A stretch of DNA of 62,134 bases, counting the filler, from Malassezia furfur (taxonomy: Eukaryota), in NCBI GenBank assembly GCA_052055015.1. It is 4 parts of 4 records of this genome, joined end to end, with 100 filler letters (N's around TTAATTAATTAA, not from the genome) between each part and the next. Parts side by side here need not be neighbours in the genome. Positions count along the whole stretch, not along the records: positions 1 to 15,516 come from JBQJIT010000271.1; 3 more parts are not named here. One strand, written 5' to 3'. Positions 288 through 31,194 of the stretch are shown in pieces; within the stretch, counting starts at the first letter, position 1, and each line of letters begins with the position of its first letter. The position numbers and the translations under genes are program-made. The notes under the pieces were generated by a model. The model had not been told where the DNA came from and did no database searches. It saw only the letters and a list, made by a program, of their open reading frames with translations.

Positions 288-1681
288 ATGTATGTCGCTA
301 AGACCGCCCTGCTAATAGCCGGCATGCTCACCATGGCTGCCTCAGCCTCGGAGCCGGTCAACAAATGGGACGTGCCTGACTTTTACTTCTCGGGCATCTC
401 GACATTTGCGCACCTCCCGCACGAAAAGTGGTACGTAGCGCGGTCCTGTGCTCATACGCATGCAGTCTGGTGAACGAGGACGTGCACTACGATGTCGCCG
501 TGCTCGGCGTGCCGATTGACACGGCTGTTTCGTACCGCCCTGGTGCGCGCTTTGGTCCGCGCGCAATCCGCCAGGGTAGCGCACGACAGACCGTGTTTCG
601 CTCGTTCAACCCGGTGCTTGGCATCAATCCATACGTGTCGCAGACCAAGTTCATGGATTGTGGTGACGTGCCAGTGACTCCATTCGATAATGCATTGGCA
701 TTTCGCCAGATTGAAGAGGCCTATGATGACATTATTGGGCGCCCTCTACCGACCGGTCCGGGCTCCATTGAGGCCCTCCCACCGAAGACGTCCAAGGGCA
801 AGCCGACCTACGTGGCCAAGGACGGTAAATCGCATCCGCGTGTCGCCCTGATGGGCGGCGACCATTCGGTTGCCCTCCCGGTGCTCCGTTCGCTCAACAA
901 GGTGTACGGCCCCGTGAGTGTGATCCACTTTGACTCGCATCTCGACACATGGGCGCCGGCCGCGTACGGTGCCGCGTCGTGGGGCTCGGATATCTCTGGC
1001 TACACGCATGGCACCATGTTTTATCATGCCGCAAATGAAGGACTGACCCGCAACTCTTCGATCCATGTCGGCCTACGTGGGCTACTCAGTGGTACCGACT
1101 ATGTCGACTACCACCGCGACAACAGCCTCGGCTTTACCTACCTGGAGACGTGGGAGATGGACAAACTCGGCACGGACGGTGTTGTAGAGGCGATCAAGGA
1201 GCGTGTTGGTGACACGCCTGTGTACCTCAGCATTGACATTGATGTGCTCGACCCTTCCATCGCCCCTGGCACCGGTACGCCAGTCAGTGGTGGACTGACA
1301 TCGCGCGAGCTACGGTCCATGGTGAGAATGCTCAAGGGGCTCAACCTTGTTGGCTGTGAGGTCGTCGAGGTGAGTCCGCCGTACGACTCGAATGGCGAGG
1401 TCACGGCACTTGCAGCTGCTGAATTACTGTACGAGATGATGTCGATCATGGCTCTTCGTCCCCTCGACAAGAAGGCGATTGACCCGTACGAGCGGCCGCC
1501 ACGCTGGGAACCGAAGAGCAAGGAGAATAAGGGCGTCAAGGGGTGTGGGTGTGACCACAGTTCGGCACCAGCTGCGTCGTCGTCAATGCCCAAGTATGTC
1601 TTTTTGTCGCTCTTGCTAGTTGTGCCCGCGGTTTTGTTTGTGTTGAAGCGTGATTCGCCTAAGCCTGAGCACCAAAAGTAG
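288..1681 (+). CDS. Agmatinase/guanidinobutyrase-like ureohydrolase (arginase family) with signal peptide and C-terminal hydrophobic anchor
   Basis: Intron 431-465 (35 nt) gives HLPHEKCLVNED. Mn-site motifs GGDHS, HFDSHLD, SIDIDVLDP and GTGTP are intact. N-terminus MYVAKTALLIAGMLTMAASAS (alternative in-frame ATG at 255). C-terminus KYVFLSLLLVVPAVLFVLKR. Confidence 0.9.
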
Positions 1682-2673: not shown

Positions 2674-5107
2674 ATAAGGATCAAACCCATTTTTGGCACC
2701 TTGGCCATTTTGGCATATGTGTCAGCCAAAGTTACGCGACTGTCGCATCCACATGTGTATCAAAAAGAAGACCCTGATGGATATATCGATGAAAAAGACT
2801 TCAAAGATTCCGGATATCCTGCACCAAAAACGTGCGCTCCTAAAGAGAACATCTGGGCATCAATTACAAATGACGAAGCAGCTTCTGTGATTAAATGGCT
2901 ACATAAGCATAGTGGACTCAACCTGACGAGTGCTGAGAATGCGACCGCTTGGGATAACAAGATTAGTGTAGTGGACTTGCTTGCCCCTAATAAGGTACGT
3001 CTCTCCATTGAAAACTGCTGACCCTGTCAGACGGATGCGAATCTTTACCTCTCCGGTGACGGTCCCAAGGCCGATCGCTACGCGGTTGCCACGATTATGT
3101 TTGGTGCAACGGAAGAGCCATGGGTAGAAGATATTGGAGTCGGCCCGTTACCAATTTCAAACAAAAATCACCTTCTGGACCTGAGCTATTTGTCTACGAA
3201 GGGCACCATGAAGATTCGCAACTACAATGCCGACGAGGAATTGCAAACGAAGTTTCTTCGGAAGGTTTCAACTGGCGTTGCGGATATCACGAAAGATCTG
3301 ATTAATATGACCGTCACTACTCATGACCACTCTCAGGGTGACATCTGGGGGATTGATCCCCTTTGGCATGAGGATGGACGGGTTATCTATTGGGTTTCAT
3401 ACTGGGGAAATGTCCAAGGTTTCCAGCTTGACGGATCTACTTTACTTCCCCAGGGGCTGTTTTTCAGGTGTGACATCACTGGTCGTGATATGAGTAAATG
3501 GTCTGTTACCGGATGGTATTACAACGGACAATTCTGGAACAGTACCGAATCATTCCGTGCTGCATGGGAGCAAGGCCAGATTAAGAAGGCCGAGCTTATG
3601 AATTCGCCCTATATTGAGCCTGGGGAACATGTCTGGTATGGTACTGATCGATGGGGCAAAGCCATGGCTCAGGACGAGAAGGCACCTCCAGTTAGTGTTG
3701 CACCAGAAGGTCAGCGTTTTGCTATCGATCAAGAGAACCGCTACGTCGAATGGATGGATTTCTCTTTCTACATTACATTTACTCGCGATGCTGGTGTACG
3801 TCTGTTTGATATTAAATATCAAAACAAGACAATTCTTTACGAGCTGGGATTGCAAGAAGCCATTGCTCACTATGCCGGCTCCGATCCAGTGCAAAGTGGA
3901 ACTTCCTACCTTGACACGTACCACTCGTTTGGTGCTTATGCTTTCGAGCTGGTTGATGGCTATGACTGCCCCACCTACAGCCACTACATGAATGCTACAT
4001 TCCATGCCGACGAGCAGTCACGTACACACAGAAATGCCATTTGCCTCTTTGAAATGGACATGCAACTTCCAATTTCGCGGCATTCCTCCTCAAAGTATGT
4101 CACTGTTACCCGTAATGTGGCACTGGTCCTCCGGTCTGTTTCGACTGTTGGAAACTACGATTATACGTTCACGTACTACTTCTACCTGGATGGCTCTATC
4201 GAGGTGAAGGTCAGTGCTAGTGGCTATATTCAAAGTGCATTCTACGCTCAAAACGACGAATATGGATACCGAATTCACCGTGGCCTCTCTGGTTCGATGC
4301 ACGACCACGTGCTTACGTACAAGGCGGATCTTGATGTTCTCGGGACGAAGAACTCTTTCGCAAAGCATGGTGCATTTGCATCGAATGAATCCTATCCTTG
4401 GACACAGGGCAAACAGCGCAGCACAATGAAGATGCAGCGCTCATGGGTTGACTCTGAGGACGAAGGCAAGGTTCATATCGAGGGCAATGGTCAAGTCCAG
4501 TACCTTGTTCTTAACAAGAATGAGACAAATGACAACGGCGAGCCTCGAGGATATCGTATCATGCCAGGAGCTGGAGGATTCCATCATCTAACCATCCAGG
4601 AATCCGACAATCTGCTCAACAGTCAGCATTTTGCAACACATCACATGTATGTCACGCAACAGAAAGACACCGAGCCTCGCGTGTCTAATGCGAACAACAA
4701 TCTGGATCCAGAAAATCCGATCGTTGATTTCGGTCGTTTCCTTGACGGTGATTCCCTCGACCAAGAAGACCTTGTGTTGTGGCTGAATTTGGGGATGACG
4801 CATATCCCACACACTGGTGATCTACCCAACACGGTACAAACTACTGCACTCCAGCTTTGTTCTTCTGCCGCACAATTACCTCAAGGATGATCCATCGCGA
4901 CAAACTAAGCAAATGGTTCGCATTCAGTATGGCAAGAAAGATGATGACGCTAAACTGCACACTTTCGGTTCCTCTCCACACCCTCGTGGAATGCTCAATC
5001 TTTCTAGTGCTTACGGTGACTTGCACCAATACGCAGGGGATGTTGCAATTCGCAAATTCCCTTATGATCCGTTGCATCCGTTCAATGACACCGAGAGCAT
5101 TGTTTAA
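2674..5107 (+). pseudogene. Secreted copper/TPQ amine oxidase (AOC3 / fungal lysyl-oxidase-like type), apparently disrupted
   Basis: Intron 2995-3030 gives PNK|TDANLYL. TPQ motif VGNYDY, Cu ligands HDH and THIP are present. The signal peptide [I]RIKPIFGTLAILAYVSA starts with ATA instead of ATG (2674). A frameshift at ~4846-4849 separates TTA from HSSFVLLPHNY. Confidence 0.85.
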
Positions 5108-5820
5108 GGAGGGGTCTTGTATTTATTTTTCAAGATTTATCTTAGTTCGAATATTTTAAGCCATGTTACTATTATTACTACAATTAATTGCCATATCACC
5201 CACACAAGCTGAAAGAATGTTGCGCCAAGTATCCCAGATACGATTGATTGTCTTCTCATAAATCGTATTTGGTTCAGCTTCGCAGGTTCTTCCGAGTCGG
5301 TAGGATCAGCTTCAATTATATCAAAAAAAAAAAAAAATCTGGCAACGTTGATGTGTTTTCCAAATACTTTTCTTTAAGTTCCGCTGAAATGGCCACAACC
5401 GTGTTTTTAATATCCTTTGTCGTGACCATCACCTCATATCACGGGGGAACACAAAGTGCCGCAAAGTTTAATGGTCAAACGCGGGGTAAAGGATCGGTAT
5501 GTCGTGATTTAACAGTGGTAGCATATTTCCACGTCTTGAAAGCACATCATTTCTCGTAATGATCAGCAAGGTGTTGCTCATGGTGGACAAGTATTGGCCT
5601 TAATCCGTACCACTTGCATGTACGCGCATCTAGCGGCCACGATGCTGACAACTCCTGAAATTATGAAATGTCGCACCCCATTGGTTTAGATCTTAGCCGC
5701 AGCAGATGGTCCAGTAATGGCCGTGATAACAAGAGGTCATCTGAGATAGACAATTTGTCGTTCAGCAGTTAAAACAGCTCAGCCTCTTCAAAATCCCTCT
5801 CCAAGGTCACTCCTCACACG

Positions 5821-7782
5821 ATGCCTGTTGAATCGACCTACGACGCGGGCATGGTCGGCGGGATGGCCGCCGACCATGCCATCTACGAACACCATCTCCA
5901 GGAGGCGGGTAAGGAGGAAACTCTTCCGCCTGCGCTGAATCACCTCGGTGATGGTCGCAAGGTCGACGATGATGTCGTCGACTGGCACTTCCCCTCGGAA
6001 GAGGAGCGCAACACGCTTCGTCGCGTCCCTGAGAAAATTAACTTCCCCACCTTTGCTATTGGTATTTGCGAGTTTGCCGAGCGTTTTAGTTACTATGGTG
6101 CTACGCAAGTCTACAACAACTTTATCAAGAATTCGCGCCCGGTGGATCCCACCAACAACCAAGTGTCGCGCACGGGTGCGCCCAAGGGCCCTCAGGCTGA
6201 CAACCTGCACCCCGGTGCACTCGGCATGGGCTCGCGTGCTTCGACGGGTCTGGTGACTTTCAACATGTTCTGGTGCTACATCACCCCCCTTTTCGCGGCG
6301 TGGGTGGCTGACTCGTACTTGGGCCGTTTCAAGACGATTTGCTGGGGTGTGCTGATTGCCGAGATCGGTCACATTCTTTTGGTTATTGCTGGTATTCCGG
6401 GTGTGATGGATGACAACGAGGGTGCCAAGGCGTGCTTTATTATTGCGTTGGTGGTCATGGGTACGGGTACGGGCGTCTTCAAGTCGAGCTGTGCCGTACT
6501 GGTTGCCGAGCAGATGAAGGTCAAAGAACAGACGGTGGTGAAGCTGAAGAGCGGCGAGCAGGTCATTATCGACCCCGCACTGACCACTGCCCGTATCTAC
6601 GTGTGGTACTACGCGATGATCAACATTGGTTCGCTCGCCGGCCAGCTCGGTATGATCTACGCTGAGAAGGACGTCGGCTACTGGCTGGCTTTCCTGCTGC
6701 CTACGCTCGTTTTCCTTCTGCCGATCCCAGTGCTCTGGTTCGGACGCAACTACTACGTCAGTGTGCCTCCGCAGGGCTCGGTCCTTGCTACGGCTGCCCG
6801 TGCCTGGGCCCGCGCGATCAAGTCGGCATGGAGCTGGAACCCGATGCAGTTTGCGCGCAACTGTGCCAGCTCGCACTACTGGGACGCGGCCAAGCCGTCG
6901 ATGGTGCAGGGCGAGAAGCCCAGCTGGATGAAGTACACCGACTCGTGGGTCGACGAGCTGAACTGCGGTGTGAAGGCCTGTGCCATCTTCGTTTACTTCC
7001 CGCTATACTGGGTCTGCTACAACCAGATGACCGGTCCCCTCCTCACTCAAGCCCTCCAGATGGACCTGGACGGCTCGCCCAACGAGTTGGTCAGCCAGCT
7101 GGACCCGATCTTCTGTATCGTGTTCAGCTTCCTGCTCAACCTCGTCCTATACCCGCTGGTCGACCGCTACCGCATCCCCTTCACTCCGATCAAGCGCATC
7201 ACGCTCGGTTTCTTCTTCGTGTGCGCCTCGATGATCTGGGCCGCGGTGCTGCAGCACTACATCTATCAGAGGAACCCGTGTGGCAACCGCGTCGGTGACG
7301 ATATCTTCATCACGGGGCCAGATGGCTCGGAGATTGACTGCTCCCAGGCCTATGCCAATATCAACGTGTGGGCGCAGGCGGGTCCCTACGTGCTCATTGC
7401 GTTGAGTGAGATGTTTGCCTCGATCGTGTCGATGGAGGTGGCCATGATCATGGCCCCCAAGAACATGCGCTCGATTGTGATGGCCATTGGTACCTTCACG
7501 ACTGCCATTGCTGCTGCGATTGGTGAGGCCTTCGTCGCGCTCTCGGCCAACCCACTGTTCGTGGTGAACTACGGTGTGTTCGGCGGCCTGTCGTTTGTCG
7601 GTGGTATCTTGTTCTGGTTGACCTTCTACAAGCTCGACCGCAAGGCAGACGAGCTGGTCACCTTCAACATCGATGCTGCTGAGGACGAGAAGCACCGCCA
7701 CGAGATTGAGGGTGCGGAATCGGCCCCGCAGACGCTCGCGACCGAGTCCAGCCCCGGCAACGAAAAGAGTGGCCTTGCTTAA
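5821..7782 (+). CDS. PTR2: POT-family di/tripeptide transporter
   Basis: 653 aa. Has the ExxERFSYYG motif (EFAERFSYYG), ADSYLGRFKTI, INIGS and APKNMRS, plus many TM segments. Confidence 0.93.
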   Translation: MPVESTYDAGMVGGMAADHAIYEHHLQEAGKEETLPPALNHLGDGRKVDDDVVDWHFPSEEERNTLRRVPEKINFPTFAIGICEFAERFSYYGATQVYNNFIKNSRPVDPTNNQVSRTGAPKGPQADNLHPGALGMGSRASTGLVTFNMFWCYITPLFAAWVADSYLGRFKTICWGVLIAEIGHILLVIAGIPGVMDDNEGAKACFIIALVVMGTGTGVFKSSCAVLVAEQMKVKEQTVVKLKSGEQVIIDPALTTARIYVWYYAMINIGSLAGQLGMIYAEKDVGYWLAFLLPTLVFLLPIPVLWFGRNYYVSVPPQGSVLATAARAWARAIKSAWSWNPMQFARNCASSHYWDAAKPSMVQGEKPSWMKYTDSWVDELNCGVKACAIFVYFPLYWVCYNQMTGPLLTQALQMDLDGSPNELVSQLDPIFCIVFSFLLNLVLYPLVDRYRIPFTPIKRITLGFFFVCASMIWAAVLQHYIYQRNPCGNRVGDDIFITGPDGSEIDCSQAYANINVWAQAGPYVLIALSEMFASIVSMEVAMIMAPKNMRSIVMAIGTFTTAIAAAIGEAFVALSANPLFVVNYGVFGGLSFVGGILFWLTFYKLDRKADELVTFNIDAAEDEKHRHEIEGAESAPQTLATESSPGNEKSGLA

Positions 7783-8128: not shown

Positions 8129-8617
8129 TTAGATATCTACATATCCACCCATACCGGCCCCACGGTCTCCGTCGCCAGCGTACGGGTCCGCGGCGTCGGG
8201 CGCGACATCAGGCGCAGCACCGTACGCATTCCACAATTGTGTCCCATACGCACCACCATCCATGCGTCCTGTGTCGGCACTGAGCCGCAGCTCCTTAGCC
8301 CAGCTCTGCTTCAGGGTGCCGATGTTTACAATCAGCTTGGTGCACGCTTGTTGCATCACCTCGGCCGGCGTCAAGCTCCCGTCGGTCTGGATTTTGACCA
8401 ACACACGGGGTTCAAGCGGGTGCGGCACCTTGTACCCACAGAAGAGCACACCCGGCAGCGACAAGACGGCGTGACGGATCATGTTGCCGAGCGTGTGGTC
8501 CTCCTTGTTGAAGTAGAAAGTGGCCGCGTTCGGGATACGCATATCCTCTTGCACCTCAATGCGCCTCTCCCCCGGCTGGAGGAGGAAGAGGTTGAAGCGG
8601 TCCGGGGCGTTCGCCAT
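8129..8617 (-). CDS. RPB11: RNA polymerase II subunit Rpb11
   Basis: MANAPDRFNLF...NKEDHTLGN...GYKVPHPLE. 5'UTR intron inferred at 8655-8807 (GTATGT...GCTAAC.GTTTAG). Confidence 0.95.
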   Translation of the reverse strand: MANAPDRFNLFLLQPGERRIEVQEDMRIPNAATFYFNKEDHTLGNMIRHAVLSLPGVLFCGYKVPHPLEPRVLVKIQTDGSLTPAEVMQQACTKLIVNIGTLKQSWAKELRLSADTGRMDGGAYGTQLWNAYGAAPDVAPDAADPYAGDGDRGAGMGGYVDI

Positions 8618-8699
8618 CGCTACAAAAGGGCCGCGAGCCCAGAAACCGATGCACCTAAACGTTAGCGACCGAACACCAAAGAAAGGTGCAGACAACCAC

Positions 8700-8780
8700 T
8701 CATATACCGTTGTAGTTTTTTGAGAAATCACCGTCACCGCCTTGTCAGGCTCAGACAGTGTGAATAAAAGTGTAATCCTT
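8700..8780 (-). ncRNA. Intronic box C/D snoRNA, dual guide (18S Cm1007-equivalent and 25S Um2729-equivalent)
   Basis: Perfect 15-bp terminal inverted repeat 8685-8699/8781-8795. Boxes: C AGGATTA, D ATGA, D' CTGA, C'-like GTGACGG. The plus strand reads the rRNA-like ATACCGTTGTAGT (8704-8716) and CAGTGTGAATA (8756-8766) right beside D and D'. Confidence 0.85.
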
Positions 8781-8892
8781 GTGGTTGTCTGCACCGGGCA
8801 CACATACCGCTGTCGTGGTCGGTGGGGAAAACTTCTGCACGGCCGGCGACACCGCGTCACGTGCCCGCCCCCCGGCTTCGCACCCACGCAGC

Positions 8893-9776
8893 ATGGCGGA
8901 TCCCAATGCGCCGGACGCGCCGGGGCACGCAGCTGTCCCTGCGATGCCGCGCCCCGAGATGATTCAGAATGCGGTGTCATTCCTCGCAGATCCCAAGGTG
9001 CAAGACTCGCCCATTTCGCAGCGGATCAGCTTCTTGGAGTCCAAAGGGCTGACACCCCAGGAGGTCGACATGGCCCTTGCACAGGCTTCGCGGCCGCAAG
9101 GCGCACCCGCTTCATCGCAGTACGCGAGCCCATACCCCATGATGCCTGCATACCCGCCCGTGCAGCCGCCGCGGCGCGACTGGCGCGACTGGTTCATCAT
9201 GGCCGTGGTGTCCGGCACGATTGGCTATGGTCTCTTTGGCCTTGCACGAGTATGTCGGCACAACTCACGCAGCGATACCTGTACCCGCACATGCAGCCGC
9301 CGAACCAGACTGTTCTTGAGGCCGAGCGTGATGAGCTCACGGCCAAGTACGACGAGGTGGCGCTCCACCTCGAAGAGCTCGACCAGACTACCGAGGCGAT
9401 CCGCCAGGGACTCGACGAGCACCAGACAGCGATCCAGCAGAGTGTCGCGGGCGTCAATGAGATGATCGAGCAGGTGCGCACGCGCGAGGAGCAGCGCGAG
9501 AAGGACTTTGAGAAGGTCAAGGCCGAGGTCGAGGAGATGCGCGAGGAGTTCACCTCGATGCTGAACCGCTCGCGCAAGTCGCAGATCTCGGCACTCACCG
9601 ACCTGCAGGGCGAGCTCAAGTCGCTGCGCTCGCTGCTCGTGTCGCGTGGTGGCCTGGCGGCGCAGCCCGCGACCTCCTCCTCCGAGAACGCCAACGAGGG
9701 CGAAAAGGCGCCGCCCGCGCCGCGCGCCGCGCCGTCCATCCCCGCATGGCAGCTCGAGGATCCCGCAGAAGAGTAG
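8893..9776 (+). CDS. PEX14: Peroxin 14
   Basis: RPEMIQNAVSFLADPKV...FLESKGLT, RDWRDWFIMAVV and a coiled coil. A 23-nt intron at 9250-9272 gives LAR|RYLYP. Confidence 0.93.
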
Positions 9777-15516: not shown

Positions 15517-15616
15517 NNNNNNNNNNNNNNNNNNNNNNNNNNNNNNNNNNNNNNNNNNNNTTAATTAATTAANNNNNNNNNNNNNNNNNNNNNNNNNNNN
15601 NNNNNNNNNNNNNNNN
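15517..15616. other. Artificial contig linker
   Basis: N44 + TTAATTAATTAA (stops in six frames) + N44. Confidence 0.99.
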
Positions 15617-16902
15617 TCGCCGACGACGTGCTGTGTGCGCGCTTCTCGCCGAACGGCAAGCTGCTCGCCATCTCGCTGCTCGACAACACGGTCAAGGTGT
15701 TTTACGCGGACACGCTCAAGTTCTTCCTGAGCCTGTACGGGCACAAGCTGCCCGTGCTCGCGCTCGACATCTCGGACGACTCGAAGCTGTGTGTGACGTG
15801 CTCGGCGGACAAAAACGTCAAGATCTGGGGCCTGGACTTTGGCGACTGCCACAAGAGCCTGTTTGCGCACGACGACAGCATCATGAACATTGCGTTCGAG
15901 CACGGGCAGCAGGGTGGCGGCCTGATGGGCGGGCGCGAGGGCGCCTCACACCGCTTCTGGACGGTGAGCAAGGACAGCAAGCTCAAGTACTGGGACGGCG
16001 ACCGCTTCGTCCTGATCCAGACGCTCCAGGGGCATCACAGCGAGATCTGGGCGCTGGCCACCGGCGCGCAGGGGCGCGTGGTGGTCACCGCAGGCGGCGA
16101 CCGCAGCATCCGCGTCTGGGAAAAGACCGACGAGCCACTCTTCCTCGAAGAGGAGCGCGAGAAGGAGCTCGAGGAGATGTACGAGTCGGCAGGGCCCGCG
16201 CCCGAGGAGCTGGGCATCGGCGAGCTCGCCGAGGGCGTCGACGACGCGCCGCGCCCGGCAGGCGCCGAGGCTACCGCCGTGTCCAAGGCATCCACCGAGT
16301 CGCTCATGGCCGGCGAGCGCCTCCTCGATGCGATCACCACCGCACGCGAGGATCTTGCGCAGCGCGAGGCTGCCGAGCGCGCGGGGCAGCCGGCCAACAG
16401 CGTGCCGGTGAACCCGGTGATCCAGGCGGTGTTCTCGGACAACATCGAGGAGGTCAACACGCACAAGTACGTGCTCAAGGTTGTCGAAAAGATCCCGTCG
16501 ACGCACCTCGAGGACGCGCTGCTCGTCCTGCCGTTTGACCAGGTCGTGACGCTGCTCTCGTTCATCGACGTGTGGGTCACCAAGGAGTGGAACGTGTCGC
16601 TCGCGGCGCGCATCCTCTTTTTCCTGCTGCGCACGCACCATGCGCAGATCGTGTCGAACCGCGTGATGCGCACGGCGCTCGTGCGGCTGCGCACGCACCT
16701 GCGCGACGTGCTCGCCAAGCAAAAGACGCTGCTCGGCTTCAACCTCGCAGCGCTGCGCTACGTGCGCCAACAGGAGACGGCCAACCGCACCGCCGAGCTG
16801 CTCGAGCGCAGTGACGTGCCCCTCGACCAGCTCGACGAGGCCGCCGTGCGCGAGAAGCTCGACGCGCGCGCACAGCGGAAACGCAAGCTCGTCGTTCGCT
16901 AG
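15617..16902 (+). CDS. DIP2: SSU processome WD40 protein Dip2/Utp12, 5' truncated
   Basis: KFFLSLYGHKLPV, KIWGLDFGDCHKSLFAH, EPLFLEEERE, LEDALLVLPF, GFNLAAL. Confidence 0.95.
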
Positions 16903-25386: not shown

Positions 25387-25479
25387 GGCCGGTTAGCACA
25401 ATTGGTAGTGTGTCTGACTACGAAGGTCCTCTGGACCGAGCACATCAGGAGGTTGCGGGTTCGAGCCCCGTGCTGGTCA
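25387..25479 (+). tRNA. tRNA-Arg(ACG) with 20-nt intron 25424-25443
   Basis: Cloverleaf with GGCCGGT/GCTGGTC acceptor stem, anticodon ACG at 25420-25422, GGTTCGAGC T-loop and a downstream T-run. Confidence 0.95.
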
Positions 25480-25550: not shown

Positions 25551-25643
25551 GGCCGGTTAGCACAATTGGTAGTGTGTCTGACTACGAAAGTCCATTGGAC
25601 TGAGCATATCAGGAGGTTGCGGGTTCGAGCCCCGTGCTGGTCA
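25551..25643 (+). tRNA. tRNA-Arg(ACG), second copy, 20-nt intron 25588-25607
   Basis: Exons identical to copy 1. TTTTTT Pol III terminator follows immediately. Confidence 0.95.
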
Positions 25644-31094: not shown

Positions 31095-31194
31095 NNNNNN
31101 NNNNNNNNNNNNNNNNNNNNNNNNNNNNNNNNNNNNNNTTAATTAATTAANNNNNNNNNNNNNNNNNNNNNNNNNNNNNNNNNNNNNNNNNNNN
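31095..31194. other. Artificial contig linker
   Basis: N44-TTAATTAATTAA-N44. Confidence 0.99.

Follow-up and report, generated by a model that had tools for sequence, protein, structure and literature searches.

The closest described systems to the element analysed here are two methylation guides of Saccharomyces cerevisiae. According to PMC5199042, the 18S methylation Cm1007 is assigned to snR79 and the 25S methylation Um2729 to snR51. The Neurospora crassa homologues are described in PMC2780460, where the snR79 homologue Nc CD18 is intronic, has a D guide for 18S-Cm1004 and is given as a single guide, and where the snR51 homologue Nc CD6 has an 11-bp D' guide for 26S-Um2687. Target translocation between fungal snoRNA families is documented for clans CD_5 and CD_19 in PMC5824354, the main text of which contains no mention of snR79 or CD_18. 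An intronic methylation guide is in itself ordinary biology.

Here we analyse an element on the minus strand of a 62,134-nucleotide stretch of Malassezia furfur DNA, filler included, which will be called the window. Runs of N at 15517-15616 and 31095-31194, flanked by TTAATTAAT / ATTAATTAA, look like linkers, with at least three pieces joined. We will show that the element is a real snR79 orthologue in the leader intron of RPB11, a variant of a well-known kind. More specifically, we consider it quite probable that we are dealing with a Malassezia-lineage snR79 orthologue that is made from the RPB11 5' leader intron and carries two predicted guides, one at box D for 18S rRNA and one at box D' for 25S rRNA.

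At the curated Rfam thresholds, the window yields two tRNAs only. Below these thresholds, snR79 (RF01184) is matched over the full model (1-89) with 37.5 bits, at E-values that are still significant, 1.7e-4 for positions 8500-8950 and 0.024 for the whole window, and no other Rfam family is matched in 8500-8950 at E up to 10. It is the 3' half that carries the alignment, with UGAUUUCUCAA..ACUACAACGGUAU.UGA following the family consensus letter for letter. This part consists of an internal element, UGAUUUCUCAA (8720-8730), which the Rfam alignment shows to be common with ascomycete snR79, and of the D guide that comes after it. The gathering score of RF01184, 55 bits, is reached neither by the window copy nor by two metagenomic relatives, L001 (37.8 bits) and L006 (34.1 bits), whereas the canonical homologues L002, L004 and L007, the three tested out of seven, score 78-86 bits. 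The first-pass annotation had called the snoRNA hidden, which is a fair description of the whole clade, with its 34-38 bits; the match to snR79 that it anticipated was indeed obtained, but below the curated cut-off. It had also called the guide chimeric. This holds for function, in that the predicted second target is the 25S site of snR51, but not for descent, since similarity to the snR51 model is absent in 8500-8950 at E up to 10, where snR79 is all that is matched. Assignment to the snR79 family of box C/D snoRNAs is thus supported, at a score below Rfam's curated threshold.

The two tRNA matches in the window, each of 93 nt and with identical scores of 43.4 bits, are found on the plus strand at 25387-25479 and 25551-25643, 72 nt apart, and probably represent two intron-containing tRNA genes in tandem.

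The element is located in an intron-like stretch of 153 nt at 8655-8807. Reading along the minus strand, this begins with the 5' splice site GTATGT (8802-8807), has the branch motif CTAAC (8661-8665, branch A at 8662), with GCTAAC seven bases from the intron's end, and closes with TAG ending at 8655 (3' splice site AG, 8655-8656). The ATG of RPB11, the host gene, follows 37 nt past the 3' splice site. Its coding sequence (8129-8617, minus strand, 162 aa) was recognized through relatives with the Pfam domains PF13656/PF01193, and the best named relatives are from Malassezia species, with 68-78% identity over the full length, which places the organism with the Malassezia-like Ustilaginomycotina. 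A longer ORF of 283 aa (8129-8980), which reads through the intron, was set aside as mechanical, as the RPB11 relatives, with 154-166 aa, fully cover the 162-aa product. The divergent neighbour (8893-9465, plus strand) matches Pex14_N in its N-terminal part (PF04695, 60.6 bits). Between the 5' splice site and the Pex14 start codon there are only about 85 nt, into which a promoter serving both genes and a very short first exon of RPB11 would have to fit. This short intergenic region contains CACGTG at 8858-8863 and a T-run ~20-27 nt before the 5' splice site; both recur in L001 and L006 and may be promoter elements that the two divergent genes share.

To compare the element with relatives, we scanned metagenome sequences with a pattern consisting of the conserved element and the D guide. 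It is important to point out that both parts were demanded, so that homologues changed in either one are missed, and that UGAUUUCUCAA is present in all matches by construction. The scan gave 13 loci, among which 9 different snoRNA bodies could be distinguished. Two of these, L001 and L006, are GC-rich like the window (63% and 67%, window 63%), and the seven other distinct homologues are AT-rich (32-42% GC). L001 and L006 both have RPB11 immediately downstream, with 73% and 78% identity, respectively, and a divergent Pex14-like gene upstream. A three-way alignment of these two with the window shows hardly any change in the snoRNA body, in contrast to the leader, both ends of the intron and the arms of the stem. 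Just downstream of RPB11, L001 also has a 103-nt tRNA match (656-758, minus strand, 49.9 bits), and there is no tRNA at the matching place in the window.

Among the AT-rich homologues, two contigs of budding yeasts, L004:1447-2879 and L007:1438-2774, have a canonical snR79 (85.5 and 77.6 bits) between GTATGT and TACTAAC, directly upstream of a SEN2-like ORF with the tRNA-intron endonuclease catalytic domain. The host gene of snR79 thus differs by lineage, being SEN2-like in these contigs and RPB11 in the window. In both situations, the snoRNA lies in a leader intron just before a protein gene, but the yeast copies have canonical boxes, weak or moderate flanking stems and no 25S guide at D'.

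Inside the terminal stem, the order in the window is AGGAUUA, an 18-nt spacer ending UAUUCACACUGU, CUGA, a short hairpin, GUGACGG, UGAUUUCUCAA, ACUACAACGGUAU and AUGA. All letters of the element described in the first-pass annotation are found as given, at the same places of the minus strand. S. cerevisiae snR79 and RF01184 agree with the window element in having an identical D guide ACUACAACGGUAU and an identical adjacent UGAUUUCUCAA, in the size of ~80-90 nt and in the box order. They differ in that the window has AGGAUUA/AUGA for boxes C and D instead of RUGAUGA/CUGA, and in that the window copy has an external stem of 15 bp and is placed in a leader intron of RPB11. A further difference from the yeast snoRNA concerns box D', which in the window is a canonical CUGA preceded by a conserved 11-nt antisense to 25S rRNA, whereas the D' side of yeast snR79 is described as bound by the core proteins but inactive (PMC3116282).

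The D guide (8704-8716) is identical to the Rfam snR79 consensus, and G8708 is its fifth nucleotide upstream of box D. It is alike in 14 of 14 sequences, although the search pattern required it. The target pairing was evaluated on foreign rRNA, namely on the eukaryotic record L198, which according to Rfam contains a whole rDNA unit with the SSU at 563-2362, the 5.8S, and the LSU at 2852-6648 with a group I intron. With the SSU sequence AUACCGUCGUAGU, the guide forms 7 bp, an A·C mismatch and another 5 bp, and its fifth base faces the second C, C1006 in the 1800-nt SSU of L198. This expected site gives the best duplex over the whole L198 rDNA, albeit narrowly (-15.1 compared to -14.5 kcal/mol for another SSU site). 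The Rfam SSU consensus also reads AUACCGUCGUAGU and has the mismatched C as a conserved base. On the L198 rRNA, the fifth nucleotide before box D is thus opposite the C1007-equivalent, with one A·C mismatch in the duplex. The Cm1007-equivalent site named in the first-pass annotation stands, but its "18S-like" sequence AUACCGUUGUAGU does not, this being the mere complement of the guide, where the real 18S reads AUACCGUCGUAGU both in L198 and in the Rfam SSU consensus. Going by homology and pairing, we predict that the D guide directs 2'-O-methylation of the 18S cytidine that corresponds to yeast C1007.

The D' guide UAUUCACACUG occupies 8756-8766, with A8759 as the fifth nucleotide upstream of box D' (CTGA, 8751-8754). 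The string UAUUCACACUG-U-CUGA is common to the window, L001 and L006, which diverge in the bases 5' of it. On the LSU of L198, the guide forms 11 contiguous Watson-Crick pairs, its fifth base being opposite the U of CAGU and the base adjoining D' being unpaired. This is the best duplex across the SSU, 5.8S and LSU of L198 (-20.0 compared to -14.9 kcal/mol for the next one), and by our own arithmetic the chance expectation is ~0.004 such 11-bp matches in 5.4 kb.

The record L198 goes back to a scan of prokaryotic assemblies in which the 25S 11-mer had to occur with a conserved LSU motif at some distance after it. This gave 24 fragments of eukaryotic LSU in 16 distinct local contexts, and in each of them the gap is 77 nt. 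The 25S string of the first-pass annotation, CAGUGUGAAUA, is exact in 24 of 24 fragments, though the search pattern demanded it. The 24 records (L189-L212) are titled bacterial or archaeal assemblies and bear eukaryotic, fungal-type LSU rDNA, presumably through contamination; one 24-kb contig of a metagenome-assembled genome has complete rDNA units in tandem, the LSU of which contains a group I intron. The distance from the target U to the sarcin-ricin A is 298 nt in 12 of 18 fragments (299 in four, 300 in one and 282 in one), six others being too short. The ricin-site A of yeast we take to be A3027, and since 298 is 3027 minus 2729, the target U is read as U2729. Five bases upstream of it there is another U, which yeast Um2724 requires. 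The LSU consensus of Rfam gives UCAGU in capitals, in a hairpin loop, and the bases after it in lower case. As only UCAGU is in capitals, the full 11-mer is to be regarded as fungal-type rather than universal, and it could differ in Malassezia.

The target motifs were also scanned for in viral contigs, giving 57 loci for 25S and at least 118 for 18S, none of them rRNA-like among the contexts listed. A full-text literature search for the 11-mers returned only unrelated primers among the matches listed, and no snR51 or substrate sequences are given in the text of PMC8413462.

Box D' is followed by a short hairpin, GCCU-GACA-AGGC (8739-8750), with the pairing as we read it from the sequence, which closes the C'/D' motif and is kept in the window, L001 and L006 with one loop change. 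After it comes a C'-like box, GTGACGG (8731-8737), of which UGAC is common to the three sequences while positions 6-7 vary. An active second guide is likely in the Malassezia-like copies, because the perfect CUGA, the closing hairpin, the UGAC-containing C' and the 11-nt antisense are common to all three. The guide would most likely direct methylation of the 25S uridine that corresponds to yeast U2729, as judged from the 11-bp match and its conservation. The 25S target put forward in the first-pass annotation is in agreement with this, with 11 of 11 pairs on fungal-type 25S at the U read as U2729, a numbering that goes through the assumed A3027, and with the guide kept in 3 of 3 sequences. S. 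cerevisiae snR51, which serves 25S Um2729 and 18S Am100, would thus share a target uridine with the window element, but function is what the two have in common, not family. The snR51 homologue of N. crassa, Nc CD6, likewise serves this uridine through a D' guide of 11 bp (PMC2780460).

The most serious alternative is a single-guide snR79 orthologue, in which only the D guide is active, as reported for yeast (PMC3116282), and that the conserved 12 nt before D' serve accessory pairing, snoRNP architecture or the methylation of another RNA. The poor conservation of the C' box at positions 6-7 among the three sequences would fit with this, and so would a second match of the D' guide, in the 5.8S of L198, which also has 11 bp but with two G·U pairs. 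However, the conserved block stops exactly at the expected end of a guide and abuts a perfect CUGA, and all its 11 pairs are Watson-Crick, at a yeast-methylated site and with the D'+5 nucleotide opposite that very U. The LSU duplex is moreover the best one over all rRNA by 5 kcal/mol, and the seven ascomycete-type homologues have no conserved antisense, or other conserved sequence, upstream of D'. We therefore regard a single-guide snoRNA as unlikely, and retain the reading with two guides.

We next consider the release of the snoRNA from the intron. The first-pass annotation had proposed a 153-nt intron bounded by GTATGT, CTAAC and TAG, and these signals are not only found in the window but recur at similar distances in L001 and L006. 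The 5' splice site is GTATGT in the window and L006 and GTACGT in L001, and the branch motif is CTAAC in the window and L001 and CTGAC in L006, with an AG after it in all three. The intron lengths are 153, 150 and 148 nt for the window, L001 and L006, respectively, the distances from the 5' splice site to box C are 28, 28 and 25 nt, and those from box D to the branch A are 38, 35 and 37 nt. Because the splice signals and their spacing are conserved in these three, we read the frame as a putative spliceosomal intron of the RPB11 leader.

The arms of the terminal stem, GGTGCAGACAACCAC (8781-8795) and GTGGTTGTCTGCACC (8685-8699, directly after box D), are complementary in 15 of 15 positions and enclose 81 nt, exactly as described in the first-pass annotation. 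Among the 25 longest of 78 inverted pairs in the window with a spacing of at most 160 nt, this is the longest perfect pair with separated arms; these 25 also include two perfect 14-nt pairs and two artefacts of the N runs. A perfect 14-bp repeat with separated arms, at 15747-15760 / 15897-15910, was dropped as a snoRNA candidate, as it reads as coding sequence.

The whole 153-nt intron folds with -51.6 kcal/mol (z -3.46), and none of 200 shuffled sequences is as good. For the stem duplex alone, the energies are -31.6, -35.5 and -28.8 kcal/mol in the window, L001 and L006, respectively, with 0, 0 and 1 of 200 shuffles as good, and the arms of the three are unrelated in sequence. The pairing of the terminal stem is thus selected in the Malassezia-like clade, since long stems are formed by unrelated sequences. 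Among the seven other distinct homologues, the flanks are clearly better than shuffled ones only in L003 (-10.6) and L007 (-14.3). A terminal stem usually serves to place boxes C and D side by side so that the snoRNP can assemble, and to shield the ends while the RNA is trimmed. A stem that brings the two boxes together is found here, and in L001 and L006 it is compensated. As the genes of Malassezia are said to have very short introns (PMC7426719), the stem, by looping out ~110 nt, may also help splicing, but this is speculation.

Some fungal snoRNAs are transcribed on their own, and one could imagine that the present one is real but not released from an intron, being instead an independent transcript or cut by an endonuclease at the long stem, with the splice signals incidental. 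The ~85 nt between the 5' splice site and the Pex14 start codon would then be easier to accept, because an intron implies a tiny exon 1. In such a scenario, however, it would be difficult to account for GTAYGT, CTRAC and AG at near-fixed distances in three species amid unconserved surroundings. The AT-rich L004 and L007 copies are likewise placed between GTATGT and TACTAAC, and the N. crassa snR79 is intronic as well (PMC2780460). Release by another route than splicing is accordingly considered very unlikely, and the snoRNA is taken to come from the RPB11 leader intron.

The two boxes at the ends of the snoRNA deviate from the consensus. Box C (8773-8779) is AGGATTA, for which the consensus is RUGAUGA, and box D (8700-8703) is ATGA, for which it is CUGA; the agreement is 5 of 7 for AGGAUUA and 3 of 4 for AUGA, the G at position 2 of box C being left unexplained. 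The C/D boxes are AUGAUUA/AUGA in both L001 and L006 and NUGAUGA/CUGA in the seven other distinct homologues. At position 6 of box C, the U in place of G is thus common to L001 and L006, while at position 2 the G in place of U is found in the window alone. The window keeps the GA of both boxes as well as the U·U positions; the U·U pair and both sheared G·A pairs of the kink-turn are intact.

In the kink-turn, position 6 of box C pairs with position 1 of box D (PMC8413462). The replacement of the G-C pair between these boxes by U-A, pointed out in the first-pass annotation, is seen in 3 of 3 Malassezia-like copies (ATGA at box D) and in 0 of 7 other distinct homologues (CTGA). As both sides are changed in the one group and neither in the other, the swap is, on the sequences compared, a clade-wide compensated change. 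Since two clades are compared, it amounts to a single inferred event and not to repeated covariation. A catalogue of fungal snoRNAs puts at 4.2% the cases where box D has a different first base, usually A, and gives a conservation of at least 99.7% for the remaining positions, box C position 2 included; this catalogue is a filtered one, from which candidates with non-canonical boxes were dropped during data curation (PMC5824354).

A side observation concerns L001, where an unpaired C after AUGA creates GAC on the non-bulged strand, the window and L006 having G at this place. GAC is the context in which the kink-turn adenine is N6-methylated in some human snoRNAs (PMC5579392).

As to the G at position 2 of box C in the window, it may be tolerated, may make the snoRNP weaker, or may be due to an error in the assembly. 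This position is the protruding uridine of the kink-turn loop and is important for the binding of Snu13/15.5K. It is highly improbable that the copy is decaying or inactive in this species, as one might suppose from the loss of a uridine that L001 and L006 keep and that is conserved to at least 99.7% in the fungal catalogue (PMC5824354), because both guides, D, D' and the conserved element are intact, the stem is the best of the three (15/15), further changes would be expected in a pseudogene, and a single G could be an assembly error.

For the snR79 orthologue with two guides, the following mechanism can be envisaged. The intron would be spliced and debranched and then trimmed by exonucleases down to the snoRNP. 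The long terminal stem would hold boxes C and D together, forming the kink-turn to which Snu13, Nop58, Nop56 and fibrillarin would bind; in this clade, the Watson-Crick pair beside the sheared pairs is U-A in place of G-C. The D guide would then lead to methylation of the C1007-equivalent of 18S rRNA and the D' guide to that of the U2729-equivalent of 25S rRNA, which is the task of snR51 in S. cerevisiae. In a genome with very short introns, the stem would perhaps also bring the 5' splice site nearer to the branch point, although this last point is speculative.

A more far-reaching reading is that, in the compact genomes of Malassezia, the guide functions of snR79 and snR51 have been consolidated in one intronic snoRNA, that the shifted boxes are tolerated by, or have co-evolved with, Snu13/Nop58, and that the stem is needed for splicing. 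We put this forward tentatively, and are more inclined to doubt it in its entirety than to accept it. If it is true, the Snu13/Nop58 core of Malassezia tolerates, or has co-evolved with, a U-A pair fixed in the lineage, where G-C is near-universal, and, in this species, a G for the protruding U, and an unusually long, compensated external stem is needed to splice a 150-nt intron in a genome of very short introns.

The results have several implications at the level of the quite probable two-guide snR79 orthologue. A conserved rRNA-modification guide is missed by standard annotation in a medically relevant yeast genus: the Rfam gathering score is reached by none of the three Malassezia-like copies, and the published fungal catalogue, too, left out candidates with non-canonical boxes (PMC5824354). 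The boxes provide a naturally occurring example of a compensated exchange in stem II of the box C/D kink-turn. The snoRNA is also a candidate case of one snoRNA taking the target of another family, and the predicted situation resembles that of clans CD_5 and CD_19, where a guide function is carried by another family in another lineage (PMC5824354). Finally, if the D' guide is active and there is no separate snR51, the element would be an example of snoRNA repertoires shrinking in compact genomes.
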